A program made the translations under genes and the position numbers. From an uncultured virus (IMG/VR IMGVR_UViG_3300012352_000177) (Duplodnaviria > Heunggongvirae > Uroviricota > Caudoviricetes > Crassvirales), in the IMG/VR virus record IMGVR_UViG_3300012352_000177: a stretch of DNA of 64,000 nt; one strand, 5' to 3'. The notes under the pieces were generated by a model. It was given only the letters and a program-made list of their open reading frames with translations. It was not told where the DNA came from and searched no databases. Below, piece by piece: positions 1-62,938 of this stretch. Numbering within the stretch: position 1 is the stretch's first letter; every line of letters starts with the position of its first letter.

Positions 1-41
1 TGTTTTTCAAGTTGTTCTATAAATTGTTCTACTGCTGTCAT
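1..41 (-). CDS. partial small protein starting MTAVEQFIEQLEK (runs off window start)
   Basis: ATG at 41 follows the repeated junction TAAATCAGAATAAG-ATG; N-terminus shared with ORFs at 2090 and 63871. Confidence 0.55.
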   Translation of the reverse strand, partial: MTAVEQFIEQLEK

Positions 42-149
42 CTTATTCTGATTTATCATTTCTATTTAATATAAGGGGCAACTTTTACCCCTTTTGGTTT
101 ATTGATTTGTTATCAAACATTTGCCACTATTTTGATTTATTGGCGTTTG

Positions 150-884
150 TTAGTCTAATGTCTCGTCTATGTAGTGGTTGTCCACCTCATCTAACTGATC
201 GTCTCCAAAGAACGTGTCGTATACCTCTATCGCCTTCTCTACCTTTCTCTCTCCACCCAACAAGAAGTTCTCTGTTGGTCTGAAGATTCCTAACTGACCG
301 GTCAACTTATCAATCACAAAGAAGATTAACGGCTTGCCGAATAGCTGTTGGTATATGAACGCTTGGCTGTCGTAGTTGTACGCCTTCGCTGAGTACTTGA
401 ACTTATGTATGTCGCTCGTTGTCTTCAGGTCAATGATGACCTCATCTGTAATGATGTCAGCCTTTCCCTTCCACATACGACCCTTAATCTCACCGATTGC
501 GGGTTGCTCGTATACGTTTCCATCCTTGTATATCTCGTCAAAGAAGTAGATGTTTTGCTTCATGACCGATGCCAATCTCTCCATCTCCTCCTTCTCGCTC
601 TGTAGCATACAGAATGGGATGTTGTTCTCTGAGCAGTAGTCCTTGTACAGCTTAGTGTTACGCGTGGATGCCTCAACGAAGTGTGCAACAGTTGCCTTGT
701 CCGGCTCAATCAACAGCTGATGAAAGTACCTGCCCTCCGCGAAGTTCTTGTTGTCTTCTCTCGCTACCCCAAACTCCCTTGGGTTGCGTAGCAATACACC
801 GATGTCTGAGTTGGAGAGGTACTTCTTTCCCTCTCCACCATAGTACTCAGCATCGTTGCGTAGTAGGTCAATTACGCTATCCAT
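150..884 (-). CDS. RecE/exonuclease VIII-like PD-(D/E)XK nuclease
   Basis: LSNSDI, GRYFH, KGKAD...IIDLKTT and YDSQAFIY motifs; coupled to a Sak-like gene. Confidence 0.8.
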   Translation of the reverse strand: MDSVIDLLRNDAEYYGGEGKKYLSNSDIGVLLRNPREFGVAREDNKNFAEGRYFHQLLIEPDKATVAHFVEASTRNTKLYKDYCSENNIPFCMLQSEKEEMERLASVMKQNIYFFDEIYKDGNVYEQPAIGEIKGRMWKGKADIITDEVIIDLKTTSDIHKFKYSAKAYNYDSQAFIYQQLFGKPLIFFVIDKLTGQLGIFRPTENFLLGGERKVEKAIEVYDTFFGDDQLDEVDNHYIDETLD

Positions 885-1510
885 TACTTGAACATATTTT
901 GGATCATCTTGCGTGATAATGCAGACAGCAAGTACTTGCGACCAATCTGCTTAACTATCTTGTCCTCACCAAGTGCCTTGTTTGCGTTGATGTACTCCTC
1001 AATCTTTGAGAACTCAGGTGTGTTTGGCTTGAGGATTGGCAACTGCTCGTCCTCCCCCTCTTTCTTCTCACTATCAACCTTCTTCTTTGCCGTAGTAGGC
1101 TTAGCCGTTGTCATCTCAGGCATATCCTCACCTGTCCACAGCTGAAGTCCTAAGCCATGCATCGCAATTGCCTTAGCAGTCGAACGCTGAATAGCCTTGT
1201 TCACGTCCATAGACGTTAGCTTGTCTAACCTGATTGACTGATTACGGAAGTCCATGATTGGTAGGTAGTCAATGTTCTCCATGCCATCTACCTCAACGCC
1301 AACCTTCACGTATGCTGTGTTGCCGTCTGTAAAGTAGTTGAGGTTCGTGTCCGGATTCTCATAGATGTGGCGTTTAGCCTTTGGGTAATGCATCTTTAGT
1401 ATCTCCCATGCGTATGACCATGACATATACTTTACGTTACCCTTCGTCTCGATTTTTTTACTAATGTCTACAGACGACAAGACATCAAAAACTGATTTTT
1501 GCTTTTCCAT
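884..1510 (-). CDS. Sak/Rad52-like single-strand annealing protein (DUF1071-like)
   Basis: YMSWSYAW, LPIMDFRNQSI and DVNKAIQRSTAKAIAMHGLGLQLWTGED motifs. Confidence 0.85.
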   Translation of the reverse strand: MEKQKSVFDVLSSVDISKKIETKGNVKYMSWSYAWEILKMHYPKAKRHIYENPDTNLNYFTDGNTAYVKVGVEVDGMENIDYLPIMDFRNQSIRLDKLTSMDVNKAIQRSTAKAIAMHGLGLQLWTGEDMPEMTTAKPTTAKKKVDSEKKEGEDEQLPILKPNTPEFSKIEEYINANKALGEDKIVKQIGRKYLLSALSRKMIQNMFK

Positions 1511-1528
1511 TGTATTTGATTTGATTTG

Positions 1529-1825
1529 TTATATACTCCTGTTAATTGTGTTGATGATGGACGCGATGTCCTTGTCCTCGTTCATGCGTAGTTGCATCTG
1601 CTTAACGCCATGAATGATTGTAGTGTGAGAGACATCAACGCCCCTCTCCTTCAAGTACTCCTGAATAGTGTTGTACCTCATGTCCCTGAGTGCACACAGG
1701 AAGTATAGCAGTTGCCTTGCATCTACTATGCTACGCTTTTTTGTCTGTGCAAACATCTCATCCTCAGTTATATCGAATAACTTGGTGATGGACTTGATGA
1801 AGTGATTAAAGATTTGTTTTTTCAT
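1529..1825 (-). CDS. DnaA C-terminal (domain IV)-like HTH protein
   Basis: KKRSIVDARQLLYFL and SHTTIIHGVKQ; start placed at ATG 1825, downstream of the promoter box at 1838-1845. Confidence 0.75.
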   Translation of the reverse strand: MKKQIFNHFIKSITKLFDITEDEMFAQTKKRSIVDARQLLYFLCALRDMRYNTIQEYLKERGVDVSHTTIIHGVKQMQLRMNEDKDIASIINTINRSI

Positions 1826-1837
1826 TTGATTTATCCA

Positions 1838-1845
1838 CAAATATA
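1838..1845 (-). promoter_or_regulatory. Bacteroidota sigmaA -7 box TATATTTG
   Basis: TAnnTTTG in intergenic DNA upstream of the DnaA-C/Sak/RecE genes. Confidence 0.6.
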
Positions 1846-1868
1846 GTTAATAAGATTGTATTTTTAGT

Positions 1869-2090
1869 CTATTGTTGAAACTTTTTTTCGCACTGCAATA
1901 GATCATTGAACTTGACGTACACGAATCCATCGTGGACTATCTTCTTGCAGTTATCCCATGTGTATTGGTGTTGATACTCTACTTCCATTGCCTTAGCTTT
2001 TTCAAATTCATTGAACAGCAAACGCATTCTGTCAGCACCTAAACATTGTGTCATAACATCTTCTAAGTACTCTACTGCTGTCTGTTTCAT
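1869..2090 (-). CDS. small protein, TAVE family
   Basis: MKQTAVEYL...EKAKAME; overlaps the upstream ORF (ATGA). Confidence 0.65.
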   Translation of the reverse strand: MKQTAVEYLEDVMTQCLGADRMRLLFNEFEKAKAMEVEYQHQYTWDNCKKIVHDGFVYVKFNDLLQCEKKFQQ

Positions 2091-2233
2091 ATCTCTTTTA
2101 CTTTAAATTTACCCATCTCATAGCCTCCCTTGATTAGAAGCTCAGACTTCATCCAATAGGCTAATGATTTGTTGTTGAATGTCCACTCTTGGACTACTTT
2201 CTTTCCGATTTCGTAGCTTAGTTTATATCCCAT
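2087..2233 (-). CDS. hypothetical 48-aa protein
   Basis: manual translation MGYKLSYEIGKK...KVKEI; fills the gap in the operon. Confidence 0.6.
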   Translation of the reverse strand: MGYKLSYEIGKKVVQEWTFNNKSLAYWMKSELLIKGGYEMGKFKVKEI

Positions 2234-2244
2234 GACCTATGATT

Positions 2245-2649
2245 TTATCCGTATATAACCTCTCCTAATACCATGTACTGAAAGCATACATCTGATGACT
2301 CAGCATCTCCCTGCTCAGATATCTCGTTGAACAACGCCCAACCATCTCCGGTGTCAATCATCTTCTGTAGTCCATCCTTGATTGTATTGTAGTTGATTAC
2401 TCCAATTGGCGTGTCGTCCTCCATGTCCTCAATGTCATGCACCTCAATGCTCACATCGTGGTCAAGTATTGCCTTGGCAAATGCCATGGAGAAAAACGCC
2501 TCGTCTTCCCTGCTCACAGCATCACGTACCTTCTTATGATTATTTGGGTTGATGTAGTACCAATAGTTACTACCACCCTCTAACGCAGTAATGAATATGT
2601 TCTCTAATACATCCCTGCCTACCTCTTTCTCAATATTAAATTTCATCAT
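2245..2649 (-). CDS. hypothetical phage protein
   Basis: acidic 134 aa; TALEGGSNYW and terminal FQYMVLGEVIYG. Confidence 0.7.
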   Translation of the reverse strand: MMKFNIEKEVGRDVLENIFITALEGGSNYWYYINPNNHKKVRDAVSREDEAFFSMAFAKAILDHDVSIEVHDIEDMEDDTPIGVINYNTIKDGLQKMIDTGDGWALFNEISEQGDAESSDVCFQYMVLGEVIYG

Positions 2650-2885
2650 GATTTAAATTTTTCGTTATACAATATTAGGCTTATCTCTAACCAATCAGAT
2701 ATGATATCATCTGATGCATCAACACCCTTTAGTGCCTCAACTACGTGTGCTACACTCTGTAACGCACACTCATTTGCCATCTCAATGGTCATCATCTCTC
2801 CCCTCTTGGTCTCTAACTTGAGGAATGAGAAACGCAGGTCGAATACCCTACGCTCAATTGCTTTTTGTCGTTCAGTCTTTTCCAT
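2646..2885 (-). CDS. hypothetical protein
   Basis: co-oriented, overlaps neighbours. Confidence 0.6.
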   Translation of the reverse strand: MEKTERQKAIERRVFDLRFSFLKLETKRGEMMTIEMANECALQSVAHVVEALKGVDASDDIISDWLEISLILYNEKFKS

Positions 2886-3084
2886 TATAGATTTGATTTA
2901 AGTACCTATCTTTTCTTCCCGTATATTTTCCGTACCAATCAGGTACTAAAGATTGTTCTGCCGATGCTACCGATGGTGTATGTACACGTGGCAGTGGCTT
3001 CTTTTCACATGACTTGACAGCCATGTAGGTCAAGAGTATACCCACGCAGAGATACCCAACCCTTTGGATTGTTTTTGTTCGCAT
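2872..3084 (-). CDS. small membrane or lipoprotein-like protein
   Basis: hydrophobic N-terminal stretch followed by KSC; AAATCAAATCAA upstream of ATG. Confidence 0.6.
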   Translation of the reverse strand: MRTKTIQRVGYLCVGILLTYMAVKSCEKKPLPRVHTPSVASAEQSLVPDWYGKYTGRKDRYLNQIYNGKD

Positions 3085-3134
3085 TTGATTTGATTTAAGT
3101 TATGTGCGTTACCGAGTCGCACCCCTCGTTAATC

Positions 3135-3476
3135 TTAGGACAACGTCAACAAGTACATCGTCTCGTGTACTAATCCTAACATCTCGTCCATGATGTTCTG
3201 TAGGTCTGATGAGTAGTTACTACGCTCAGCTTCAATCATCTTCTCCATGTCTCTCATGTGCGCTACCGCATCCATGTTCTTAGCCTCAGGGATTACAAAC
3301 TCAACGCGTTTGTTACGTCCGAAGTACTTCTCTGTGAAGCTATCTGTTAGGTCAAGGATTGAATCATAGTACGCGTTCAATGCCTTGTGTTCAGCGAATG
3401 ATGTCGTCTGTAGGTGTGCGATGTGCATCATGTCGCGTGACTGAAACAATGCACCGATAAATTTACTTGGTGTCAT
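3135..3476 (-). CDS. small ferritin/Dps-like four-helix protein (DUF5856-like)
   Basis: HIAHLQTTSFAEHKALNAYYD...DSFTEKYFG...LQNIMDEM...YLLTL; own promoter. Confidence 0.7.
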   Translation of the reverse strand: MTPSKFIGALFQSRDMMHIAHLQTTSFAEHKALNAYYDSILDLTDSFTEKYFGRNKRVEFVIPEAKNMDAVAHMRDMEKMIEAERSNYSSDLQNIMDEMLGLVHETMYLLTLS

Positions 3477-3499
3477 AATAATTAGTTTAAATATTTACA

Positions 3500-3507
3500 C
3501 AAAGATA
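3500..3507 (-). promoter_or_regulatory. sigmaA -7 box TATCTTTG
   Basis: consensus box about 24 nt upstream of the ferritin-like ATG. Confidence 0.65.
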
Positions 3508-3702
3508 CTACATTTCTCGCACAGGTACAAAGACCTTGATGCCTCTATCGTTCACGTCATACTCCAATGGAAACGCCTCGAACGAGTCCTGCAATATCTC
3601 CATGAATACCTCACGTCTCTTGCTCGGTAGGTATAACATTCGGTCAATGATTTCTTGGATGACCTCTTTTCTTTTCTGTTCTGTTAATGGTAGTGTATAC
3701 AT
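3508..3702 (-). CDS. hypothetical protein
   Basis: ORF in the early cluster with A-rich leader. Confidence 0.6.
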   Translation of the reverse strand: MYTLPLTEQKRKEVIQEIIDRMLYLPSKRREVFMEILQDSFEAFPLEYDVNDRGIKVFVPVREM

Positions 3703-3721
3703 TTTGTTTTGTTTTATTTGG

Positions 3722-3955
3722 TTAAAAAATTAGTTCGTCAAATTCTGTGTACATCTCTATGTGCCTATTTGGATGTGTATCCTTTAATGCGTTTAACAAC
3801 GTTTCGTTGTCATAGAAATCATCGTTGTCACGTTCCGCTTGTACGATTGGTTTAATTACTTCGATGATTTGGTCATCGTTCAATGTTGTTAATAGGTAGA
3901 AGTCCTCTTCTGCCCATGCTGACGTTTTGATTTTAATTACTCTCATGTTTACCAT
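3722..3955 (-). CDS. hypothetical protein
   Basis: ORF in the early cluster. Confidence 0.6.
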   Translation of the reverse strand: MVNMRVIKIKTSAWAEEDFYLLTTLNDDQIIEVIKPIVQAERDNDDFYDNETLLNALKDTHPNRHIEMYTEFDELIF

Positions 3956-4251
3956 TGATTTAAGTTTCTAATTCTGTTCTTGTTATTCTTCCATGCATCC
4001 TCACACATAGTGCGTAGTGATTCATCTTGGATGTCGTGTATTCCACCGATGCCCTTGTACGAACCATACCTACCTCCGTAGGTAGATACTTTTATGATTG
4101 GGTCTTCTCTTAGGTACTCAATCACCTCTTCCGTTCTGTCCTTGAACACTGAGTACACGTCCATTGTATTTAGTTGTCCGTACCGGTCTGCTGATGCGTT
4201 CGCAACATATCCTACCATTAATTCTCTGATTTGATTTTTAATTGTCTCCAT
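3949..4251 (-). CDS. hypothetical protein
   Basis: ORF in the early cluster. Confidence 0.6.
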   Translation of the reverse strand: METIKNQIRELMVGYVANASADRYGQLNTMDVYSVFKDRTEEVIEYLREDPIIKVSTYGGRYGSYKGIGGIHDIQDESLRTMCEDAWKNNKNRIRNLNQW

Positions 4252-4254
4252 ATC

Positions 4255-4614
4255 TTAAAGTTCTGCTTCAAATTCACAATATCCTTTTTCCTTTAGGCAC
4301 TCAAGTATCTGTCTACCAAATATCAAATCTGCGTAGTCACCTAACTTGCTTACAGAAATTCCATTCTCAGCTAACATCTCATCTCTGTACGATGTATGCT
4401 TATCAAAGAACTCATCAAACTTCTGCAGTTGATCACCTAACGCATCCTCTATTTTTTTTATCTCAGACTCCACATCCTGTATATTGTCTGCTCCAAATCT
4501 ATACTCTAAGAACTCCGGTTGGTAGCCTGTTACTCCAAACCTATCTGCTGAGTTACTTGGTTGGACGGCAAACCAAAATTTGCCGTCTATGTCTCCACTA
4601 TAATATCTTCCCAT
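4255..4614 (-). CDS. hypothetical phage protein
   Basis: MGRYYSGDIDGKFWFAVQPS...CEFEAEL. Confidence 0.7.
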   Translation of the reverse strand: MGRYYSGDIDGKFWFAVQPSNSADRFGVTGYQPEFLEYRFGADNIQDVESEIKKIEDALGDQLQKFDEFFDKHTSYRDEMLAENGISVSKLGDYADLIFGRQILECLKEKGYCEFEAEL

Positions 4615-4625
4615 GATTCCTAAAT

Positions 4626-4790
4626 TTAAAAACGTGATTTACCTTGTGCTTTCTTAATGTCCTTGGACACATAGTATCCTTTGTTATGGCATCCCTTTGA
4701 TGCTCCACATGATGTTAGCATGATTGCTATTGTGATAATTGATATCGCATACACTGATGCAATTGTCCATACTTTGTTTTCTGTTTTCAT
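4626..4790 (-). CDS. small lipoprotein
   Basis: start re-placed at MKTENK (AAATCAA-ATG); hydrophobic signal plus LTSC lipobox. Confidence 0.6.
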   Translation of the reverse strand: MKTENKVWTIASVYAISIITIAIMLTSCGASKGCHNKGYYVSKDIKKAQGKSRF

Positions 4791-4803
4791 TTGATTTTGT
4801 TTT

Positions 4804-5088
4804 TTAGTTGTTATACTCGTTTCCTTCTGCATCGTACCATTCGTCATCAATATCGTAGAAGTCCCATTCTGTGTAATAGTACATATCTTCGTTGTAGAAG
4901 TACTCCAACAGGTCATCATCATTTTCGATATCCTGTGAAAGATTGCCGACTGCATCCTCCCAATCTAATCCATGTAAGTGGTCAATTAGATGTTCTCTTG
5001 TACTGAAGCAAAGTTCACCATCTCCAAATACATATCCTTCGTTCATGCCTCATCCCGTAGCATCACAACGTCTTGCAAATTTTTCCAT
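4804..5088 (-). pseudogene. acidic early protein with in-frame TGA at codon 13
   Basis: reads MEKFARRCDATG*GMNEGYVFGDG; ATG 5088 is coupled to the upstream stop (TAAAATG); TGA at 5050-5052. Confidence 0.6.
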
Positions 5089-5089
5089 T

Positions 5090-5326
5090 TTAGTTTAGTT
5101 TTAATCGTTCGTTAATTGCATTCTTAATTCCATGTGGGATATGGTCTAACATAGTCCCGAGGTGGTCACCTTCCTCAATCTCCGTTCGGTCACCGATATA
5201 CATATTGAATCCGCATCCCTCTGCGCTCATTCCGTACACGTCGTTACCGATAAAGATTGTATACCGGTCTAAGGTTTCACCACCATTGTCGTAGATTACT
5301 ACGCTCTCTTCTTTTCTCACTATCAA
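5090..5326 (-). CDS. hypothetical protein (start uncertain)
   Basis: IYDNGGETLDRYTI motif; TTG start. Confidence 0.6.
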   Translation of the reverse strand: MIVRKEESVVIYDNGGETLDRYTIFIGNDVYGMSAEGCGFNMYIGDRTEIEEGDHLGTMLDHIPHGIKNAINERLKLN

Positions 5327-5337
5327 CTCTTTTCTTC

Positions 5338-5511
5338 TTAGATTATCTCTGATAGGTACAAAGGCACAACGTGTAATGCGCCCGTATCAGCGCATCGCAC
5401 AATGTAGTTACCTGTTCCGCTTACCTGCCCGATTAATTCGTAATATCCTGTTAACGTTGAATGCATCCCATCAATCAACATCGTATCTCTTTCTCTTAGT
5501 TCTATTAGCAT
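5338..5511 (-). CDS. hypothetical 57-aa protein
   Basis: manual translation MLIELRERD...LYLSEII. Confidence 0.5.
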   Translation of the reverse strand: MLIELRERDTMLIDGMHSTLTGYYELIGQVSGTGNYIVRCADTGALHVVPLYLSEII

Positions 5512-5521
5512 AACTTAAATT

Positions 5522-5932
5522 TTAATCGTTTAACTCTTTAATGAATATCTTTCCGTATCGCGTGAATCTTCCTGTTGGTTTCTCAATGCGTATACTAAAC
5601 TCGTCCGTATCGAATGCGTTCCCTTGCGCCAATCGTCCATGCACCGCGTTACGCGTTATCTTGAATAACTCTACAATCCAATCTGATGCATACGTGAACT
5701 TTAGTTCCCATACGTTATCCGTATTCAATGCCATGTAAGGCTTTACCTTGTCAAAGAAATAATTGTCGGGAGTAACACCGAAGAACTCCTTAAGGAAGTA
5801 CTTGAATAACTCGGGCTTTGTCTCTATCCTGTTGCAATACTGCGCACATTGTGTTGACCATGCGCCATCAATTATCATTGCATTTCCGTCTTCAATCCAA
5901 GACTCGAATGCTTCTAATTCGTATGCTTTCAT
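5522..5932 (-). CDS. hypothetical protein
   Basis: 136-aa ORF coupled to the upstream gene. Confidence 0.6.
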   Translation of the reverse strand: MKAYELEAFESWIEDGNAMIIDGAWSTQCAQYCNRIETKPELFKYFLKEFFGVTPDNYFFDKVKPYMALNTDNVWELKFTYASDWIVELFKITRNAVHGRLAQGNAFDTDEFSIRIEKPTGRFTRYGKIFIKELND

Positions 5933-5933
5933 A

Positions 5934-6629
5934 TTAGTGGTTTAAAATGTAAATACTCTTGTTTCCTTTACCTTCCGTTCCCGAACACAATCCGCATTTA
6001 GAACATGAACTCTTATATCCTGCTTCCTTTGATGCAGGGCAGTTAACGTATTCGTCTAACTTTGTCTCCGTAGCTACGTACGAACGCCATCCTTCATTGG
6101 ATGCGTTTTGTTCCTCCGCAGATGTGTGAACGGATGCCATGAAGAATTTGCTTAACTCTTTTTTCTTTGTCCATTGGTGTGTGTAACCCGTCCAATTTTG
6201 TGATGCGCTCACCATGGATTCGATTAACTCATGTGGATGTAAACTTGGTTCACCATACGTCCCGAATCGGATGAACTTTCCTGCGCTCATGCTAACGATT
6301 ACCGCGCCAATAAACTCATCATATGTCGGAACATCGTCCCATGTTGGGAACTCATTTCTGATTGATTTTATCATGGATTTGAATCCTACATACTGATTAA
6401 ATTTGTGTGTGTAACATTTGCCGAACTCGTTAAATGGACAATCCAAACAATTTGTATCCGCATGGCTAAAGAATCCTTTCATGCCGTCCAAATCTTTTTC
6501 AAATTGTGTACGTGAAAATGTATACGTTTGAACTATCTTGCGCCCTTTGTCCGCTTCGATTTTGTCGTTACTTGTGTTACCTAATCTGAATACTTGTAAC
6601 GTTTCCTTGTGTTTAAATACTAATCTCAT
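5934..6629 (-). CDS. Cys-rich, probable Fe-S protein (gp88/radical-SAM-like)
   Basis: CLDCPF-x5-CY, IRFGTYGEP, WTGYTHQW, FMASV and CPAS...CSKCGLC. Confidence 0.65.
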   Translation of the reverse strand: MRLVFKHKETLQVFRLGNTSNDKIEADKGRKIVQTYTFSRTQFEKDLDGMKGFFSHADTNCLDCPFNEFGKCYTHKFNQYVGFKSMIKSIRNEFPTWDDVPTYDEFIGAVIVSMSAGKFIRFGTYGEPSLHPHELIESMVSASQNWTGYTHQWTKKKELSKFFMASVHTSAEEQNASNEGWRSYVATETKLDEYVNCPASKEAGYKSSCSKCGLCSGTEGKGNKSIYILNH

Positions 6630-6653
6630 GGCTTATGATTTAAATGGTTTATA

Positions 6654-6809
6654 TTACTTATCTGTTGCTACTAATCCAAGCATGAATAAGCTAATGAATA
6701 TTGCGAAACTAAACATACCGAAATGTTCCCATGTTTGGCATTGTGTTAATCCAATTAATGATGTAAGGATTGCCGTAATTAATAGTGGAATTAATGTAAG
6801 TGATTTCAT
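6654..6809 (-). CDS. small two-TM membrane protein
   Basis: manual translation, 51 aa with two hydrophobic segments. Confidence 0.55.
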   Translation of the reverse strand: MKSLTLIPLLITAILTSLIGLTQCQTWEHFGMFSFAIFISLFMLGLVATDK

Positions 6810-6810
6810 C

Positions 6811-7125
6811 TTATTGATTGTTTAATGCGTTAACTAATGCGCGTCTGATGTAGGTCAAATCGCTTTTTAAATGTGCTAATCCGTTGAATGAATACGCGTC
6901 TTTGTTTACGTTATATCTTTCCTTTCTGATGTAGTCATGATGGCTCTCAGATACAGATTCAATGGTCACGAACTGATTACTGATTTTGATAGGTTTAATG
7001 TTCACGTAGTAAGGAAATGTTCCTCCTCCATACGTGTATGCCATTAATTCCAATTCGTTTGCTCTGCGCATCAATTCGTTTATTTCCTCGATGCGCTTTG
7101 TTAGTGATGTTGATACCTTTTTCAT
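6811..7125 (-). CDS. hypothetical protein
   Basis: ORF in the early cluster. Confidence 0.6.
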   Translation of the reverse strand: MKKVSTSLTKRIEEINELMRRANELELMAYTYGGGTFPYYVNIKPIKISNQFVTIESVSESHHDYIRKERYNVNKDAYSFNGLAHLKSDLTYIRRALVNALNNQ

Positions 7126-7140
7126 GTCGTTATTATTTAA

Positions 7141-7374
7141 TTAACCAAAAATGTAATGTCTTTTACTCATCCCCTCAAGGATTAACTCGAATGCCTCAAC
7201 TTGATTTCGTAGGTCATCTATCCTATCAAAATCATCGCATATCAACTTATCCGAATAACCATTGATGTCATATCCCATTGCATCAAAGTAGGTCATTGTG
7301 TAATCCATTAATTCTCTTCTGATTACATCGTATCTGTTTAGTAATGTGCTGAATTCTTTTCTAATTGATTCCAT
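7141..7374 (-). CDS. hypothetical protein
   Basis: ORF in the early cluster. Confidence 0.6.
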   Translation of the reverse strand: MESIRKEFSTLLNRYDVIRRELMDYTMTYFDAMGYDINGYSDKLICDDFDRIDDLRNQVEAFELILEGMSKRHYIFG

Positions 7375-7397
7375 TGTGTTATGTTTTAAAGTTTAGT

Positions 7398-7439
7398 AGC
7401 ATGGGGATGAATCGAACATCCCCTTGAACCATTCATGCT
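7398..7439 (-). ncRNA. tRNA-like T-loop minihelix element
   Basis: AGCAT-N11-GGGGATG-TTCGATT-CATCCCC-ATGCT: 5+7 bp stack capped by a T-loop. Confidence 0.5.
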
Positions 7440-7648
7440 TATGGGTTTTGCAGAAACATTTCCGCCATTAATTTTGCTTTGGTCATTGTCCTATATCCGA
7501 ATAGCTTTCCGTTCATTTCCAATATCCATTGCTTTTCCTCTTTACTATAGTAAACTCTTGCATCCTCATACTCATAGTACGTATGCTCAAATGTGCAGTC
7601 TAATGCAGGAACTAAATTGTAGTCCGTTGTTTTTGTCCATTTACTCAT
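7439..7648 (-). CDS. hypothetical protein
   Basis: ORF in the early cluster. Confidence 0.55.
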   Translation of the reverse strand: MSKWTKTTDYNLVPALDCTFEHTYYEYEDARVYYSKEEKQWILEMNGKLFGYRTMTKAKLMAEMFLQNP

Positions 7649-7823
7649 GTCGTTGTGTTTTAAAGTTAGTCAATGCGGTAGGTTTCGCTCCTATTAAATG
7701 CTCATAGCATCCGCATCGTAATGTTGATATCCACGTGAAACCGATATCCCTCTTCTTAATCTCTACATCTATGCCTGTTAAGATGTGATTCAAATGATAA
7801 CCACCTGAGTAGTGTATTATCAC
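7641..7823 (-). CDS. hypothetical protein (GTG start, uncertain)
   Basis: first ORF after the early promoter. Confidence 0.35.
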   Translation of the reverse strand: MIIHYSGGYHLNHILTGIDVEIKKRDIGFTWISTLRCGCYEHLIGAKPTALTNFKTQRHE

Positions 7824-7934
7824 CCCGACTTAGCGGAGTCTTTATACTTACCGCATCGGACTCGTATGACCTACCGAGTTAATGTTTATTGTCTTACCAA
7901 GAATTAAAGAACTTGTTGTCGTTGTTTGACATTG

Positions 7935-7942
7935 CAAAGATA
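7935..7942 (-). promoter_or_regulatory. early leftward promoter -7 box TATCTTTG
   Basis: consensus box heading the leftward cluster; boxA-like GTTCTTTAA about 25 nt downstream. Confidence 0.7.
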
Positions 7943-8400
7943 ATGCATAATACTTGAATAAAACAAATGCAATTCGTGAAATATTTATGTGCAATACTCT
8001 GTATCCCTTATTGGGCAAGGGATTCAACGTGTTAAATTTCTTTAAAGTTTTTTATTCATTAGGTTATAAAGGGAGTAGATTCACCACATTTAATTAGTTA
8101 GGCTAGAAATTCGAGCAGTCTTTATCCCTCTTCTCATAGCCTATACCATGTATACGTGTGTAATGCGTGCAACAACGGGCGCTAGCTAGGGGAGATATGC
8201 GCAAACGTAGGCGGGGCGGGAGCTACAGCGCGGGAGCATGACCATGTGCGTACACATAGCCAACAGGAAAAGCCAAAAAATCTGCCGAAAGTTCGAGATT
8301 TTGCACCCCCCACCCCTAAAAAAAAAGCAGTTTCCTTTTTCGGGCCGGCTGCGTGAAACGTGGTACAACCCCAACACTACACTTATGTAATATAATTTTT

Positions 8401-8408
8401 TACCTTTG
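8401..8408 (+). promoter_or_regulatory. sigmaA -7 box TACCTTTG
   Basis: 15 nt upstream of ATG 8424. Confidence 0.65.
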
Positions 8409-8423
8409 TAAAAACTTAAGATT

Positions 8424-8639
8424 ATGATGAACAAGAAAGGAAACTTAGAGGGATTAGAGGTACGCAACGGTAGATTGATTAACAACCAACCTGATGGTAT
8501 GACGGGAATCCAAAAGATTGCAATGATGAAGAAGGCAAGAAAGATTGAAGAGAAGACCATGATCATGGAGAACGCGATGTACAGAGCAGAGATGCGAGCT
8601 GATATGATGGAGTACATGAAGGGTAAGAGCTGTATGTAA
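8424..8639 (+). CDS. small Met/Lys-rich protein, monocistronic
   Basis: own promoter and terminator; GLEVRNGRLIN. Confidence 0.7.
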   Translation: MMNKKGNLEGLEVRNGRLINNQPDGMTGIQKIAMMKKARKIEEKTMIMENAMYRAEMRADMMEYMKGKSCM

Positions 8640-8659
8640 TACTATTGCAAGATGAGTTT

Positions 8660-8684
8660 AGGGGGTCTATTAGGCCCCTTTTTT
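8660..8684 (+). terminator. intrinsic terminator
   Basis: GGGGGTCTA/TAGGCCCC hairpin plus T run. Confidence 0.75.
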
Positions 8685-8726
8685 ATTTTACTCATTTTAT
8701 TTTTTAGTATTGATTTTTATAGTTTC

Positions 8727-8903
8727 TGTCGATTATCGACATAATTATTGATTTTTATGTCGAGAGAATGTCGACTAACTTATTGATAATCAGTTAACTG
8801 TCGATAATGTCGATTTTTTCTTCAAATTCTAGTGGGAAAAAAAATATATATTATATAAAATATATATATATATATAGAGAAATTATTTTTGTCAAACGTC
8901 ATC
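8727..8903. repeat. TGTCGA iteron cluster plus AT-rich tract (origin-like, copy A)
   Basis: TGTCGA at 8727, 8758, 8769, 8799, 8808; (AT)n tract about 8840-8876. Confidence 0.55.
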
Positions 8904-8914
8904 CAAAACTTTTT

Positions 8915-9012
8915 TTTGTTTGTTTAGATAATAGTCTTATATTTGCAGTGCATACTTTTCGCATTTGGTTTGAAAGTGGGTTATCAGTTGAAAGCGGTAA
9001 CCCATTTTTATT
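8915..9012 (+). ncRNA. putative small RNA unit 1 (promoter-guide-hairpin)
   Basis: TTTG-N19-TATATTTG promoter, about 25-nt U-rich segment, 13-bp hairpin; no same-strand ORF. Confidence 0.5.
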
Positions 9013-9018
9013 TGTATA

Positions 9019-9103
9019 TTTGTTCGATATAAAATTTTATCTATTTTTACCATAATAGGTATTTGTGATTTGAAAGGGGAGCGGTCAGGCTCCCTTTTTT
9101 TTT
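9019..9103 (+). ncRNA. putative small RNA unit 2 (promoter-guide-terminator)
   Basis: TTTG-N19-TATTTTTA promoter, CATAATAGGTATTTGTGATTTG, GGGAGC/GCTCCC hairpin plus T9. Confidence 0.45.
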
Positions 9104-9305
9104 GCGACATACTTGCGACAAACATTTGCCAATATTTAAATTTATTGTCATATATACTAGATAAAATCGTTTTTATTCCGATTATCTTAATTGTTTTTAG
9201 CAACTTTCATGTATAATTAAGTGAATTTCCTTTACATTAAGTGTTTTTCACGTATAGTTTACCCTTATTTCTTTACATAAGTGTGGCATTGTGACAAATT
9301 TTTTA

Positions 9306-9313
9306 TATTTTTG
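9306..9313 (+). promoter_or_regulatory. sigmaA -7 box TATTTTTG for groEL
   Basis: 22 nt upstream of ATG 9336. Confidence 0.6.
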
Positions 9314-9335
9314 TGACGAATTAATTAAATCAAAT

Positions 9336-10946
9336 ATGCAAGGACAAGGTTATATGCCGAAGGATTTATTCTTCGAAGAGGAGGGAAGGAAGAAACTTAT
9401 CTCCGGAGTTAAGAAGATGGCTTCAGCTGTCAAGAGTACGTTGGGTCCCCATGGGAACACGGTACTAATCGAATCACCACACCACACTCACGGTATTACA
9501 GTCACTAAGGACGGGGTTACGGTAGCAAAGGCTATCGAGCTAATGGATCCTGTAGAGAACCTAGCGGTTAAGATGATGAAAGAGGCATCTGATCGTACTG
9601 CTACAACTGCAGGAGACGGGACAACTACGGCTATCGTGTTAACTGAGGCCATGGTATTGGGTGGTATGGAGCTAATCAAACCGGAGCACAACAGGACTCA
9701 GGTGTTACGACACATGACGGAGCTAAGTGACTTGATCGTTGATAGGCTTAAGAAGAAGAGCAAGAGAGTAACAACGGGTATGTTGGCTGACGTGGCTACG
9801 ATCAGTGCGAACAACGACCGTTCAATAGGTAAGATCATCGCAGACGTGTACAAGGACGTTGGAAAGACGGGCATTGTAACGGTGGAGAAGTCACAGTCTA
9901 CTAGCACATACGCAGAGACCACGGACGGACTACGTGTACAGAGGGGATACCTTTCGCCTATGTTCATTAATAATCAGGAGAAGGACGAGTGTATCTTAGA
10001 GGACACCCTTGTATTGGTAGCAGACATGGAGATCGGTAACATCCTACAGATAGAGTTGGTACTAAAGCCACTTATTCAGGAGGGGAAGAAGCTACTGATC
10101 ATCGCACCGTGCTCTACGAACATGACAAACACCTTAGCTGCGAACGTAGTTAAGAACGGACTAAAGATATGTGCTATCCAACCACCGAGCTTTGGGTACA
10201 AGCAGCACGAGCTGATGCAAGACATCGCGACAAGCGTGGGTGCTACCTACTTCAGCGAGAAGACGGGTGACGACTTGAGCCATATGACGTACGCTGACCT
10301 AGGTCACGCAGGAAAGGTGATCGTTGGACGAGACGAGACCATCATCATGACGAGTGATGTGAAGGCTGACCAAGAGCAGATCGATGAGAGAGTCGCTCAG
10401 TTGTGGAAGGCGAACGAGGCAGCTACCAAAAAGAACGACAAGGACTTCATATTGGAGAGAATTGCGTCATTAACAGGTGGAATTGGTGTAATATACGCAG
10501 GTGGTAACACAGACCTAGAGCAAAAGGAGCTATACGACAGGATTGATGACGCGGTATGCGCGGTACGTTCAGCCTTGGAGGAAGGAATTTTGCCGGGCGG
10601 TGGTAAGGCCTTGGGTGAGATCAACGTCTTTGAGGGCCTAGGCTTTGCAACTGACACGGATGAGAAGGTAATCGCGGCAAAGATCATGCAGTTGGCTGTA
10701 AATATGCCATTGATGCAGATCCTTAAGAACGCAGGCGTACCATTTGAGGACGTAGCGGACTGTATGGTAAACGATGGCTTTGGTTATAACGTGAAGACCG
10801 GTGAGAAGGGTGACCTAATCAAGATGGGAGTTATTGACCCGTTGAAGGTAACGAGAAGCGCACTTCAAAACGCGGTAAGTGTAGCGGTTACGATACTAAG
10901 TACTAACGCTATCGTCACGATGGCACGAACAATTGGAATAGAGTGA
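9336..10946 (+). CDS. groEL: chaperonin GroEL (Cpn60)
   Basis: TLGPHG, VTKDGVTVAK, AGDGTTTA, ALEEGILPGGG, GVIDPLKVTRSALQNAVSVA; start re-placed from GTG 9291 to ATG 9336; no GGM tail. Confidence 0.97.
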   Translation: MQGQGYMPKDLFFEEEGRKKLISGVKKMASAVKSTLGPHGNTVLIESPHHTHGITVTKDGVTVAKAIELMDPVENLAVKMMKEASDRTATTAGDGTTTAIVLTEAMVLGGMELIKPEHNRTQVLRHMTELSDLIVDRLKKKSKRVTTGMLADVATISANNDRSIGKIIADVYKDVGKTGIVTVEKSQSTSTYAETTDGLRVQRGYLSPMFINNQEKDECILEDTLVLVADMEIGNILQIELVLKPLIQEGKKLLIIAPCSTNMTNTLAANVVKNGLKICAIQPPSFGYKQHELMQDIATSVGATYFSEKTGDDLSHMTYADLGHAGKVIVGRDETIIMTSDVKADQEQIDERVAQLWKANEAATKKNDKDFILERIASLTGGIGVIYAGGNTDLEQKELYDRIDDAVCAVRSALEEGILPGGGKALGEINVFEGLGFATDTDEKVIAAKIMQLAVNMPLMQILKNAGVPFEDVADCMVNDGFGYNVKTGEKGDLIKMGVIDPLKVTRSALQNAVSVAVTILSTNAIVTMARTIGIE

Positions 10947-11188
10947 GACAGTTAATAGTTGATGCGTACCCGAACGAAACGTTTATGTTCGTATTGGGAT
11001 TCGATGAGGCAATAATCGGAGTGGAGCAGTTCACAATGAAGGTTGTTTACTCAGAGAAGAAGTGCATTGACATACTAAAGCAAAAGGGGTTAGACCCTAA
11101 GGTAGCTTTAGATCACTTTGAGTTTAATATAAAGTCGGCTTATATGGGAGATAAGACTCCCATATTTGTTGACGACATACTTCAATAA
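10943..11188 (+). CDS. conserved small phage protein
   Basis: GFDEAIIG...VVYS..KC...FEFNIKSAYMGDKTPIF; GTGA overlap with groEL. Confidence 0.75.
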   Translation: MRQLIVDAYPNETFMFVLGFDEAIIGVEQFTMKVVYSEKKCIDILKQKGLDPKVALDHFEFNIKSAYMGDKTPIFVDDILQ

Positions 11189-11189
11189 C

Positions 11190-11209
11190 ATGAAAGCAAT
11201 CGGAAAGAA
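11190..11209 (+). pseudogene. orphaned original 5' end of groES (MKAIGK)
   Basis: ATGAAAGCAATCGGAAAGAA versus groES ATGCGTGCAATCGGCAAAAA. Confidence 0.6.
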
Positions 11210-11230
11210 AAAAAATCTTATCTTTGCTAA

Positions 11231-11926
11231 ATGGAAAATAAAAAAGTAGTATATCTTCATAGGAAAAATACAGATAATTCTGTTTTTTATGTAGGAATGG
11301 GTAATTTGGCGCGTGCATATTCTAAACAAAGATCAAAATGGTGGAATAGCGTAGTAAGTAAACACGGATATACTATTGAAATATTCAAAGAAGGATTAAC
11401 ATTAGAAGAGGCTTGTCAATTAGAGATAGAACTTATTGAAAAATATGGTAGAATAGATTTAAATAATGGACAACTTATAAATCAAACAAAAGGAGGAATT
11501 ACTGTAGAGGCAATGTCTGAAAAAGGTTTAAATAAAAAAATTAAGTCTTTAAAATCTGTAGCAAGAACAGATGAATGGAAAGAAAAAATATCTAAAGCAC
11601 TAAAAGGAAAGGTAAAAAGCAAGGAATGGAGAGAGAAAATAGCTAAAACATTAACAGGAAGTAAGTTATCTGAAGCTACTAAAGAAAAAATGAGATTATC
11701 TAATAAATCAAAAATAGTAAGCGCAAGACCTATTTCTTGTTATGATTATTATTCATCTGAATTCATTGGTAATTTTCCTTCTTTAAGACAAGCTGCAAAA
11801 GATTTAGGTTGTTTGGAAACTTCTATAGCAAATAATATTGCTAAAAGAAGTAAAAAAGTAAATAGTAAAATATTAAACAAAAAATTAAAATTCAATTACA
11901 TATGCGTGCAATCGGCAAAAATATAG
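11231..11926 (+). mobile_element. free-standing GIY-YIG homing endonuclease with NUMOD3 and NUMOD1-like domains
   Basis: VYLH...FYVGMG...R...E...LINQTKGG; EWKEKISKALKG-type repeats; FPSLRQAAKDLG; much more AT-rich than flanks; own TATCTTTG at 11219-11226. Confidence 0.85.
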
Positions 11927-12159
11927 TAATCAAGACAGTAGACGAAGAGATCAAGACTGCATCAGGTCTATTACTGTCAGGAGAGGACTCCAATCAGATG
12001 CGTTACAAGAAGGCTATCGTTGCGGTAGCAGGAACGGACGTGAAAGCAATCGAGACAGGTGACTACATCTACTACGACAAGTCAAATAGCTTTACTATGG
12101 TCATCAACGATGAGCAGTATACAATCATTAACGAAAGGGATGTGGTAGTTGTGCTATAG
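11902..12159 (+). CDS. groES: co-chaperonin GroES
   Basis: KTASGLLL mobile loop, VAVAGTDV, GDYIYY and INERDVVVV. Confidence 0.9.
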   Translation: MRAIGKNIVIKTVDEEIKTASGLLLSGEDSNQMRYKKAIVAVAGTDVKAIETGDYIYYDKSNSFTMVINDEQYTIINERDVVVVL

Positions 12160-24945: not shown

Positions 24946-25172
24946 TGGAAATTAGAAAGATATCAATTGGTCCTGACTACAAAGGTGGTGCGATGCACTA
25001 CCTTGTAGGTCAGAGAGTATGCGGTGATTCGAATGAGATTCATTTGATCAGAAGAGACTCAATGACTAATTCTATCAAGATCTTTATCATTAACGAAAAG
25101 GAAGAGGTTGTGCTTTGGAAAGAGTTCAATCACACAATTCCTGTTGCAATTGAATATAATATAAATTTTTAA
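24945..25172 (+). CDS. conserved hypothetical phage protein
   Basis: IRKISIGPDYK..AMHY.VGQ...WKEFN. Confidence 0.75.
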   Translation: MEIRKISIGPDYKGGAMHYLVGQRVCGDSNEIHLIRRDSMTNSIKIFIINEKEEVVLWKEFNHTIPVAIEYNINF

Positions 25173-25735
25173 TGAAATCTCCATTCTACTTTATTGCAAA
25201 GCCAATGAAGGGGAAAAGATACGACAACACTAAGGAGATAGGCGGAATAGAGCTTATCACTAGTACATCAGAAGAGGACCACAAGTTCTCTAATCGTTTT
25301 GCTGAAGTTGTTGAAACTCCTTTAGGCTATGAGGGACCTATCACAGTTGGTGATACCCTAATTGTACATCACAATGTATTCAAGTTCTATAACGACATGA
25401 AGGGTCGTCAGAAAAGCGGTAAGAGCTTTTTCCGTGATGATATATTCTTTGTTGATACAGAGCAGTTCTATATGTATAAGCATGACGATAAGTGGTATGC
25501 TGTAGATAGATACTGTTTCGTTAGACCAATCCCTGCTATAGAGACTTACATCAAGAAGCCATTTACAGAGGAGCCACTTATGGGGCAGATGGTATACCCA
25601 AACGATTACTTAGTTAGTCAAGGCGTAAAGCCGGGAGACTACGTATGCTTTAAGCCGGACAGTGAGTACGAGTTTACAGTTGACGGAGAGAAGATGTATA
25701 GGATGTTTGATCATCAAATAACAATTATCTTATGA
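25172..25735 (+). CDS. tandem two-domain GroES-like protein
   Basis: domain 1 EIGGIEL...AEVVETP...ITVGDTLIV; domain 2 GVKPGDYVCF...EFTVDGEKMYRM. Confidence 0.6.
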   Translation: MKSPFYFIAKPMKGKRYDNTKEIGGIELITSTSEEDHKFSNRFAEVVETPLGYEGPITVGDTLIVHHNVFKFYNDMKGRQKSGKSFFRDDIFFVDTEQFYMYKHDDKWYAVDRYCFVRPIPAIETYIKKPFTEEPLMGQMVYPNDYLVSQGVKPGDYVCFKPDSEYEFTVDGEKMYRMFDHQITIIL

Positions 25736-55128: not shown

Positions 55129-55150
55129 AGTAGTGCCGAAAGGCACTACT
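55129..55150. terminator. hairpin between convergent arms
   Basis: AGTAGTGCC-GAAA-GGCACTACT perfect 9-bp stem; no U tract. Confidence 0.55.
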
Positions 55151-55559
55151 TAAACCTTATGTACTTAAACTCTTTTTGTTTGTCGTAGTAAGCCATTAGC
55201 TCATTATCGTTAGTGGCTCCTTCTCTGCTAGGTCTACCACCCAACCGGATGGTTCCGTATATAGAGAATATCTTACCATAGATGATACCATCTTCGCATG
55301 ACCATATAACAACGGGGTTTAGTCTTTTATCAGATAACTTGTGTAGTTTACGTATGGCAATAGGGAGAGGATACGCGTCTCTCATGGTACGTATCCTTCC
55401 CTTTACCTCGACATAAGCAATTAGTTTCTTGTCCTTATCAAAGACCTTATAGTCTACATCGTGTGGACCTAACTTCTCGTATGATCCTCCGAATATTGCA
55501 ACAAATGTTTCTATGGCTTTTTTCTCTCTTCGTCTGTCTTCTTCTGATTCAAAAGTCAT
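55146..55559 (-). CDS. PD-(D/E)XK endonuclease-like protein
   Basis: DVDY...YVEVKGR. Confidence 0.7.
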   Translation of the reverse strand: MTFESEEDRRREKKAIETFVAIFGGSYEKLGPHDVDYKVFDKDKKLIAYVEVKGRIRTMRDAYPLPIAIRKLHKLSDKRLNPVVIWSCEDGIIYGKIFSIYGTIRLGGRPSREGATNDNELMAYYDKQKEFKYIRFK

Positions 55560-55737
55560 CGTGCTCTATAGATTTTAAAAGCATACGTAGCTCGGAGATA
55601 ACGGAGATGATATCCTTGTCGACCTTGTGAAACTCACGGTCAACTAATCTTTCATAGATATCAGCTAAGGACTTGTGACATATGTCAATTGTGAAGGCTA
55701 TACGCCTTGCTCTGTCCATTTCATTATTCCCCTCCAT
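55549..55737 (-). CDS. hypothetical protein
   Basis: IYERLVDRE; in operon. Confidence 0.6.
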   Translation of the reverse strand: MEGNNEMDRARRIAFTIDICHKSLADIYERLVDREFHKVDKDIISVISELRMLLKSIEHDDF

Positions 55738-55741
55738 ACGC

Positions 55742-56284
55742 TTATCTCATTACAAGACTATTAAAAAAATTATTCAACTTAGATTCCACAAAATCCTCTT
55801 GTCCGACAGGTGTCCTATCGTTGATCAACCAAAGTATTTTTTGTAGTCTCTCGTACTTTAGTTTGTCACTTAAGTACTTTTGATTCTCCAAAGATAGCTT
55901 TTCTATTTGTTTATGCAACACCATTGAGTTATTTATTATCTCAATCTCTTGACTTTCTATCAGCTTAGGTTGTATTTCTATAAACCTTTCTTTCAGGTAT
56001 ATATACGTTTCGCGGAACTCTGTGTCACTACTAAATAACCAATCAAAGTTTTTCATGTAGTGAATAATAGTTGAATGATCTTTGCCAATTCTTCTACCAA
56101 TAGACTTAAATGAATAGTTGTGTTCACGTGCAATCTTTGCATATATAATACGGGCATCGACAAGCTTTCTTTTCCTTGAGTCCCCAAATATATCTATATC
56201 TAGTTCACCCTCTACTACGATGCGAATTGCATCTAATTCATCCTTTGGTTTCCTCACCTCTAAATACTTCTGTTCTGATTCCAT
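55742..56284 (-). CDS. DnaA C-terminal-like HTH protein with coiled-coil tail
   Basis: SRKRKLVDARIIY...SFKSIGRRIGKDHSTIIH. Confidence 0.75.
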   Translation of the reverse strand: MESEQKYLEVRKPKDELDAIRIVVEGELDIDIFGDSRKRKLVDARIIYAKIAREHNYSFKSIGRRIGKDHSTIIHYMKNFDWLFSSDTEFRETYIYLKERFIEIQPKLIESQEIEIINNSMVLHKQIEKLSLENQKYLSDKLKYERLQKILWLINDRTPVGQEDFVESKLNNFFNSLVMR

Positions 56285-56492
56285 GTTTATTTAATTCTTT
56301 AATTCTAAATTCTTGTAACTTACTTAACTTTCCATCCGGACGCTTGACCTCGCTAAACAGCACACCTGTGTTAGGTGGTATAGCGATGAGGTCCGGGATT
56401 CCATTCTTATTGGTCTTGATGAGCTTAATGACGTAGTATCCTTGAGCTTCAAGTTCCTTGATACGTTTGGCTTGTATCTGCTGTTCGGTCAT
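56238..56492 (-). CDS. VRR-NUC nuclease
   Basis: TEQQIQ...GIPDL...SEVKRPDGKLSKLQ. Confidence 0.85.
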   Translation of the reverse strand: MTEQQIQAKRIKELEAQGYYVIKLIKTNKNGIPDLIAIPPNTGVLFSEVKRPDGKLSKLQEFRIKELNKHGIRTEVFRGEETKG

Positions 56493-56737
56493 AGCTCAAA
56501 TAGTTCTCTTCGTGTTTCTTCTAATTGTTTAAGCTCTCTATCAAGCTGACCCTTTAATAGATCTAAAGCAACTTTATAATCAATATAACATGGTATATTA
56601 CGAATTGTAATCCATTCATAGTCGAAATGAATTTCATCCATTCCTTTAACTATTTTTTCAAGCTGCTCTATTCTTTCCTCATATCCAATTATACATTGGA
56701 TAAGATGTTCTCCTTGTCTAACTTGTTCTACTGTCAT
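56489..56737 (-). CDS. hypothetical coiled-coil protein
   Basis: ATGA-coupled; similar layout to ORF 57012-57272 (ends FEL / FDEL). Confidence 0.6.
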   Translation of the reverse strand: MTVEQVRQGEHLIQCIIGYEERIEQLEKIVKGMDEIHFDYEWITIRNIPCYIDYKVALDLLKGQLDRELKQLEETRRELFEL

Positions 56738-57015
56738 AGCTTTTCGATTTCTTGTTTAACTTCTTCCCAATATTCAAGCGACAACCCTAAATCTATTTCC
56801 CGGTGGCTATAACATTGGTTGATTAATTCTTGAACTGCAATCAATGCACATTGTTTGGCTGTATATTCATCAATATGACCTTGATAACAATATAGCATTT
56901 TATCTACTAATTCTTTTGCTTTTTCTTTTGGTGTCATAAATCCATTTATTTTTTTAGGTGTTGCATCTAATATTTTAGATAGCTCATTAATTACTTCTTT
57001 ACTTGTTGGCTTCAT
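56734..57015 (-). CDS. small protein with TPKEKAKEL...YWEEVKQ module
   Basis: module begins at Met 56937; YWEEVKQ shared with ORF 63695-63871. Confidence 0.65.
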   Translation of the reverse strand: MKPTSKEVINELSKILDATPKKINGFMTPKEKAKELVDKMLYCYQGHIDEYTAKQCALIAVQELINQCYSHREIDLGLSLEYWEEVKQEIEKL

Positions 57016-58699: not shown

Positions 58700-58701
58700 G
58701 G

Positions 58702-59040: not shown

Positions 59041-59222
59041 TTTGTGCTTTGTTTGTAATCAATTATAAATCCTATCGCAACTATTATGTTCATGCCTATA
59101 GATGCTACTACCTCTGTAATGTCTTCATAGACCGTTGTCATTAGATGGATGTGTCCTATAGACCAAAAGGGTATGGCTAGGTTCTGACTAATCCAAACTA
59201 TCAAGAACGTAACAAATCTCAT
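59037..59222 (-). CDS. small membrane protein
   Basis: two hydrophobic segments; ATGA-coupled. Confidence 0.6.
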   Translation of the reverse strand: MRFVTFLIVWISQNLAIPFWSIGHIHLMTTVYEDITEVVASIGMNIIVAIGFIIDYKQSTK

Positions 59223-62933: not shown

Positions 62934-62938
62934 CTTAA

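Follow-up and report, generated by a model that had tools for sequence, protein, structure and literature searches.

The trans-acting phage sRNAs described in the literature that we found belong to Proteobacteria phages. The C4 RNA of P1/P7 is described as an RNase P-processed molecule of three stem-loops, with its a' and b' seeds in loops, that serves immunity and lysogeny (PMC5320573), and PreS of lambda and VpdS of VP882 are described as Hfq-dependent sRNAs of temperate Gammaproteobacteria phages with mainly host targets (bioRxiv 10.1101/2024.10.31.621285; PMC12197685). In Bacteroides thetaiotaomicron, the FopS family is reported as sRNAs of 65-70 nt with 12-15 copies per genome, which are bound by RbpB, repress host susC/PUL mRNAs, and block initiation by pairing beside the start codon; one copy is noted in a Caudovirales phage, and the model is stated to be deposited in Rfam (PMC11697453). 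Reported determinants of initiation in Bacteroidota are low structure and adenines at positions -3, -6, -12, and -13 (PMC7797042). A 2025 review cited beside PreS and VpdS contains no Bacteroid* term in its main text, and the literature that we covered, with most subscription journals and all supplements outside it, held no account of a Bacteroidota phage regulating its own genes with an RNA of this kind; the FopS supplement on the Caudovirales copy may bear on the novelty of the unit described here.

The window (the whole stretch of 64,000 nucleotides that was analysed, whose numbering is used throughout) is most of the ~64-kb genome of a freshwater GroEL>GroES podophage with Bacteroidota-type signals. 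It encodes terminase, portal, virion and tail proteins, primase/helicase, a Sak-like annealing protein with an exonuclease, and a GroEL>GroES operon, and none of the 75 ORFs scanned against PHROGs falls in an integrase, RNA polymerase, or cas family. Small leftward ORFs at 150-7648 and 55146-63871 form a presumed early arm, called early because of its gene content and minus-strand TAnnTTTG promoters at 7942 and 3507, and the TAnnTTTG promoters and A-rich leaders point to a Bacteroidota host. GroEL>GroES contigs of the virioplankton have been tied, in the parts of that study consulted, to Cellulophaga-like podoviruses (PMC5649160); the groEL relatives that we found in genome contigs (11 loci) look like mis-binned phage contigs. 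The sequence-only reading had proposed that two back-to-back non-coding units, here units 1 and 2, form an array of antisense RNAs against early start codons. Both sit at the strand switch and GC-skew switch, between a conserved repeat region and groEL (9336-10946, plus strand), the landmark that closes the variable slot holding them.

Other features of this genome deserve mention in their own right. Clusters of GTCGA-type repeats, candidate origin or operator sites, lie at 8721-8880 (seven sites, 8727-8813) and at 62939-63060, just upstream of the primase gene (three listed, 62939-63005), among 21 repeats in the window, and both clusters then run into an AT-alternating stretch. The 8721-8880 region, at the GC-skew switch, is 142/160 and 144/160 identical (~89%) in two relatives and recognisable in most groEL relatives. 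A GC-rich non-coding stretch between the diverging arms (8160-8370), with counterparts in relatives, is a candidate genome end or packaging site. Between groEL and groES (11902-12159), a 231-aa ORF (11231-11926, plus strand) with weak NUMOD1 and NUMOD3 matches (E 0.001, below the cut-off) is probably a homing endonuclease, and it is missing from the corresponding position in L003 and L004. A second GroES-like family protein of 187 aa is encoded near the terminase gene (25172-25735, plus strand).

Unit 1 begins with a sigmaA-type promoter (8915-8945, plus strand) composed of a -33 TTTG at 8915-8918, a 19-nt spacer, and a -7 box TATATTTG at 8938-8945, and the TTTG-N19-TAnnTTTG layout read from the letters alone is thus borne out. 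Since the -7 box is placed at -12 to -5 in the Bacteroidota promoters described (PMC9723704), transcription would start at G8950. The predicted RNA, about 60 nt long (58-63) and ending near 9010, would consist of a single-stranded 5' guide (8950-8974, plus strand; core 8956-8971, 16-nt seed 8958-8973), nearly unstructured by itself in fold prediction, and an intrinsic terminator (8977-9013, plus strand; stem 8977-8985/8996-9004, T run from 9005). The hairpins claimed for the two units are both real, with z values of -3.5 for unit 1 and -3.2 for unit 2, neither matched by any of 200 shuffles, and with a T run after each. No Rfam family matches the window at gathering score, and raising E to 10 gives sub-threshold chance matches only. 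Five RNA runs share words with the window (word shares 0.05-0.15, all contigs) and are uninformative either way; four were compared over 1-12000, and among the pieces listed none spans 8950-9103.

The best 80 of 383 groEL relatives in IMG/VR were scanned for promoter-guide-terminator units. Unit 1 is present in the four closest (L001-L004), most of the 80 have no such unit, and two sub-clades carry one, the second clade having a different unit at the corresponding position (L008, L009, L011, L014, L015) and L053 a third kind. A guide-core pattern scan of IMG/VR gave 62 matches with only four true homologues, and promoter-plus-terminator patterns that left the guide free gave 56 metagenome matches, 7 of them true, and 7 viral ones, 4 of them true, adding two new variants; L146 looks chimeric and is excluded from our conclusions. 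Altogether unit 1 has six distinct sequence variants, from phages whose groEL is 93-100% identical. The TAnnTTTG -7 box is kept in all six, the -33 box is TTTG or TTG with a spacing of 19 nt in five and 20 nt in one, and the core TTTT(C)GCRTTTGGTTT is nearly invariant. In the terminator stem all 60 cells pair, and 3 of the 10 pairs have changed on both sides, against 45-62% pairing in slid controls, which for six related sequences is supportive with no probability attached. By eye, no conserved reading frame is apparent in the alignment on either strand. TTTGAAAG, which the sequence-only reading placed ahead of the hairpin in both units, differs in the five remaining variants of unit 1 and so is not a shared handle. 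A model of unit 1 detects a single strong copy in each genome, and unit 2 only at E 2; against 151 Bacteroidota genomes it gives three weak matches (36-39 bits), which are ordinary terminators without the core. On this evidence unit 1 is a probable phage sRNA gene.

The best predicted target in its own genome is 3078-3093 (minus strand), comprising the leader, AUG, and first codons of ORF 2872-3084. The reported 15/16 identity of 8958-8973 to this site is confirmed, the sole difference being a guide-G/target-U pair, and the 16-bp duplex spans -9 to +7 of the start. The guide duplex reaches -21.8 kcal/mol, compared with -15.1 for the next of 90 start regions, and with the full RNA folded and target structure counted the net value is -18.5 versus -11.5 for the next best. 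Dinucleotide shuffles of the guide reached -21.8 in 5 of 300 and 3 of 400 cases, the latter over 39 hand-set leftward starts, one of them not a start codon; automated start callers misplaced some starts (4919 for 4790, for example). None of 43 native pre-terminator 3'UTR segments from relatives reached -21.8, in a null that takes in short and A-rich segments and so favours the target claim. The start is also the best of 446 early starts from 29 de-duplicated related phages (14 of them its own), with a small margin over the next non-self start (-20.3), and genome-wide the site comes first after the gene's own antisense strand, again by a small margin (next -21.5). Across 1.64 Mb of related-phage loci with 82 distinct leader-plus-ATG contexts, the 16-nt wobble complement occurs only at the two guide loci themselves.

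The target ORF (2872-3084, minus strand) specifies 70 aa, the N-terminal part including a hydrophobic stretch that closes with a conserved K-S-C, which suggests a lipoprotein-like product; it has 10 homologues, in which R, Q, or K is seen as the second residue, and no family in PHROG, Pfam, or Atlas, and it overlaps the next ORF (2646-2885). A short GC-rich hairpin seen by eye just upstream of its leader (3102-3120, minus strand) is possibly an RNA stability or processing element. The leader motif AAATCAAAT does recur upstream of the other leftward starts listed earlier (1510, 1825, 2885, 4790, 63448), but as unit 1 targets these reach only -8.5 to -14.7, with a mean best shuffle of -14.7, so that the target claim holds for ORF 2872-3084, the top candidate and above shuffles, and is unsupported for the rest. 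The groEL start was rejected as a target (rank 17/90, 24/88, and 38/63), an L201 variant ranking it 2/90. Any preference of the guides for small membrane or hydrophobic ORFs was inconsistent across six genomes, and first-clade guides have no average preference for start regions over coding windows (p 0.98, 0.28, 0.79), which implies that any guide effect is limited to a few genes. A mirror-strand control favoured the plus strand in 8 of 9 cases and is not counted as evidence, since G+U-rich strands pair more freely anyway.

Only three genomes have both the guide and an orthologue of ORF 2872-3084, and searches from the upstream gene (3 loci), from Sak (8), and from the target ORF (2) brought no new ones. 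Guide-target co-variation, suggested as a check on the pairing, appears in G001, where guide and orthologous start have both changed and the orthologue again ranks first (1/88, -22.3; 10 of 300 shuffles), but not in G002, whose orthologous start ranks 33/63 and where 43 of 300 shuffles do as well as the best start, which is not significant. When partners are swapped, the window guide falls from -21.8 on its own orthologue to -15.6 on that of G001, and the G001 guide from -22.3 to -17.9 on that of the window. Several non-start sites in G001 equal or beat the target. Two or three more early starts of G001 are predicted to pair with its guide on both sides of the AUG, and two of those genes are missing from the window, whose guide is without the 5' block that pairs with them. 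In G001 and G002 the guide has the CGU spelling, along with AAAYYAAACG leaders (2/46 and 1/32; 0/43 in the window).

Guides also tend to match the leaders of their own clade. First-clade guides give z values of -2.0 to -6.0 with the early starts of their own clade and of -0.1 to -2.7 with those of the second clade. For second-clade guides the ranges are -0.7 to +0.9 with first-clade starts and -0.1 to -4.1 with second-clade starts. All are rough values from 25 shuffles; four of six guides are best on their own genome, G004 and G005 being the exceptions. Ranked among 29 phages, the own genome came 3, 1, 2, 1, and 1 for five guides (3, 1, 3, 2, and 2 with the other start caller), comparisons that cover two clades of related genomes and are not five independent trials. 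Ordinary 3'UTRs of the upstream gene also weakly favour their own genome (permutation p 0.017, 22 loci), and U-rich stretches before terminators are common in these phages. That conserved gene (8427-8639; orthologues in, e.g., L031, L009, L079, L239, and L241) has a 3'UTR (8640-8685) that is U-rich before its terminator and that mirrors leader motifs in some relatives. The second clade has its own promoter-guide-terminator unit just upstream of groEL (L009:9483-9550; also L008, L011, L014, L015). The guide of this unit mirrors both the CCAATAACA leaders of the clade and the exonuclease gene start (rank 1, 3, and 1 in three genomes); a pattern for the unit gave 16 matches, of which five were true and none of these was new. 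A further short unit that is conserved and bounded by a promoter, and that has a terminator as well as an internal hairpin, lies on the opposite strand in L009 (~8249, minus strand), L011 (~1610, minus strand), and L014 (~88, minus strand).

What can be observed of unit 1 is that it has conserved elements, a predicted structure, and above-chance complementarity to one start of its own genome, which is tracked in one of two relatives. We judge it somewhat better than an even bet that unit 1 is a FopS-like sRNA acting in trans on a small number of early start regions in its own phage; its transcription, in vivo pairing, block of initiation, and timing are what we infer from these observations. 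It could instead be a real sRNA whose selected targets are host mRNAs, with the phage-start match a by-product of Bacteroidota leader motifs. The guide core has stayed invariant in six variants while the orthologous start was lost as a target in G002, as this alternative would have it, and A-rich leaders are described as phylum-wide (PMC7797042). We nevertheless think host targeting unlikely. The own-genome and own-clade preference of the guides speaks against it, and so does the scarcity of full 16-nt host sites: of 301 Bacteroidota genomes sampled, 11 contain the wobble-permissive 16-nt complement, at 12 places in all, and of 13 host sites inspected 12 have an AUG followed by a stop and one opens a 380-aa frame.

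A second alternative, which we regard as quite unlikely for unit 1, is that the unit is a relic with no regulatory role, either an emptied accessory-gene cassette that retains its promoter, U-rich 3'UTR, and terminator, or an inverted leader copy, left where recombination is frequent. No relative has the same content in the slot before groEL, most of the best 80 groEL relatives do without a unit, and in relatives the unit-1 model has weak matches (E 0.03-0.5) to the 3'UTR and terminator that follow the upstream conserved gene, all of which a relic would accommodate. Against this, promoter, core, and stem are kept, the stem with compensatory changes, whereas flanking 3'UTR DNA aligns at only 28/84 and 37/84, and none of the 43 native 3'UTR segments pairs equally well. 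The core itself is informative here. Its invariant GG can pair, via G-U wobble, with the leader spellings AAATCAAA, AAACTAAA, AAATTAAA, and AAACCAAA, and the exact complement AAACCAAA is the rarest of them (3 of 241 first-clade starts, versus 18, 9, and 10 for the others). A DNA copy of a leader would retain the common spelling; a core that could read all spellings, and that matches exactly only the least frequent one, is more in keeping with selection for RNA pairing than with copied DNA.

The relic reading suits unit 2 well. This is a genome-private non-coding cassette (9027-9103, plus strand) with an optional 5' hairpin that carries UUUACCAU in its loop and with a strong terminator (plus strand; stem 9077-9082/9089-9094, T run 9095-9103). 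Its promoter candidates (9015-9049, plus strand) are TATATTTG at 9015-9022, or TTTG at 9019-9022 with TATTTTTA at 9042-9049. The latter, chosen in the sequence-only reading, has an off-consensus -7 box, and TATATTTG, a consensus -7 box with a start at 9027 and no -33 box found, is an equally good promoter that would give a 76-nt RNA with a predicted 5' hairpin. By the -12 to -5 spacing described for these promoters (PMC9723704), a start from TATTTTTA would fall at 9054, leaving the "CAT" at 9051-9053 untranscribed. With three possible 5' ends, 253, 280, and 129 of 400 shuffles do as well as unit 2 on its best phage start, and the resemblance pointed out to the 2885 and 1510 starts is visible (-14.5 and -14.1) without exceeding chance; pairing with phage starts better than shuffles is a property of unit 1 (3/400) and not of unit 2. 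Its own genome ranks 8 and 3 among 29 phages, then 6 and 7 with the other start caller.

Equivalents of unit 1 exist in related genomes as six variants, but unit 2 has no homologue in the 2.97 Mb of loci searched or by IMG/VR pattern scan, and a weak likeness to second-clade units in alignment was not accepted as homology. Units 1 and 2 have at most 14-17 nt in common (76-86% identity). Close relatives diverge right after unit 1, L001 being identical over 8910-9013 and different until 9288, and the slot before groEL (9014-9287) holds other DNA in every close relative. In G001 a TATATTTG box is placed likewise after unit 1, preceding a 96-aa accessory gene; this slot gene is common to G001 and G003, and GTAACTAA-type short repeats occupy the slot in L001 and L002. 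The proposal of an array of two equivalent guides does not stand, unit 2 being missing from all close relatives and having no significant phage target. Unit 2 is best treated as a recent passenger in an accessory slot before groEL; it too probably yields a short transcript, and is perhaps aimed at the host or another phage, or perhaps a relic. That unit 1 is a cis by-product, either a promoter-terminator attenuator for the slot and groEL (which we take to resemble lambdoid pR'-tR') or transcription serving the origin-like repeats, is very unlikely. The position of the unit would suit such a role, directly between the conserved GTCGA-repeat AT-rich region and groEL and where the GC skew switches, but a separate TAnnTTTG box serves groEL both here and in many relatives without the unit, and the clade-matched complementarity would be left unexplained.

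If unit 1 is an sRNA against the phage's own early starts, host sigmaA RNA polymerase would start near 8950 and stop at the intrinsic terminator, as its conserved elements suggest. The unpaired U-rich 5' end would then bind a few of the phage's leftward early genes at their A-rich leader and start codon, ORF 2872-3084 being the chief target in this genome, and the invariant GG may allow one RNA to read several leader spellings by G-U wobble. By analogy with FopS, pairing would prevent the loading of ribosomes, for which Bacteroidota need an A-rich leader that is open. The RNA would accumulate during infection and probably damps the translation of early genes, or times them and the ORFs coupled to them; given the overlap of ORF 2872-3084 with the next ORF, repression could reach down the operon begun at the 3507 promoter. 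The idea of an anti-start RNA therefore survives for unit 1, through its conservation, compensatory stem changes, and guide-target match here and in one relative, but not for an array. A broader conjecture, which we consider possible though doubtful, is that sub-clades of the abundant aquatic GroEL podophages carry clade-specific anti-leader sRNAs in an exchangeable slot ahead of groEL, with seeds that co-evolve with their own SD-free leaders and read several spellings together by G-U wobble, as an RNA timer. Such a timer would shut selected early genes, possibly with the matching genes of co-infecting relatives, and unit 2 would have joined it recently as a second guide, directed at the host or a competitor. 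Confirmation would mean RNA timing of early genes in phages of a phylum without Shine-Dalgarno sites or Hfq, and unit 1 with the ORF 2872-3084 start is a compact natural guide-target pair with a swap partner in G001.

Among known arrangements, a type I toxin-antitoxin pair has its antitoxin RNA gene beside or opposite a small hydrophobic toxin gene, and this was rejected because ORF 2872-3084, while small and hydrophobic, lies ~5.9 kb away from unit 1. CRISPR repeats can present a conserved end with a GAAAG-like handle; a mini-array or solitary repeat was rejected as well, the units matching over 14-17 nt at most, TTTGAAAG varying, and the 75 scanned ORFs including no cas gene. The chaperonin phages have the same reversed GroEL>GroES operon as this genome, in a paper that concerns chaperonins (PMC5649160). 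PreS and VpdS resemble unit 1 as short phage-encoded trans-acting sRNAs with their own terminator, and VpdS is reported to hit phage as well as host mRNAs. C4 comes nearer in its targets, being described as a phage RNA that acts in trans on ribosome-binding regions of phage mRNAs with co-varying specificity, as is predicted for unit 1. It differs in that unit 1 is predicted to be a primary transcript with a single terminator hairpin and a linear 5' seed, and has no Rfam match, and C4 serves lysogeny whereas the 75 window ORFs scanned include no integrase. FopS, in turn, differs in seed, copy number, and targets. The R1/R1' seed was not found in unit 1, with no FopS match up to E 10 over 8600-9340 in a scan of 4227 Rfam models, in which the inclusion of FopS rests on the deposit statement of the original paper (PMC11697453); this genome has one or two copies in place of 12-15 paralogues, and the predicted targets of unit 1 are its own early phage genes rather than host susC/PUL mRNAs. 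Judged by sequence and structure, then, unit 1 is not a member of the FopS or C4 families. What it has in common with FopS/GibS is an architecture: a sigmaA promoter (TTTG-N19-TATATTTG, with the -7 box in 6/6 variants), a single-stranded 5' seed followed by an intrinsic terminator in an RNA of similar length (58-63 nt, by prediction), and pairing near start codons, which is predicted for unit 1 and reported for FopS/GibS (PMC11697453).
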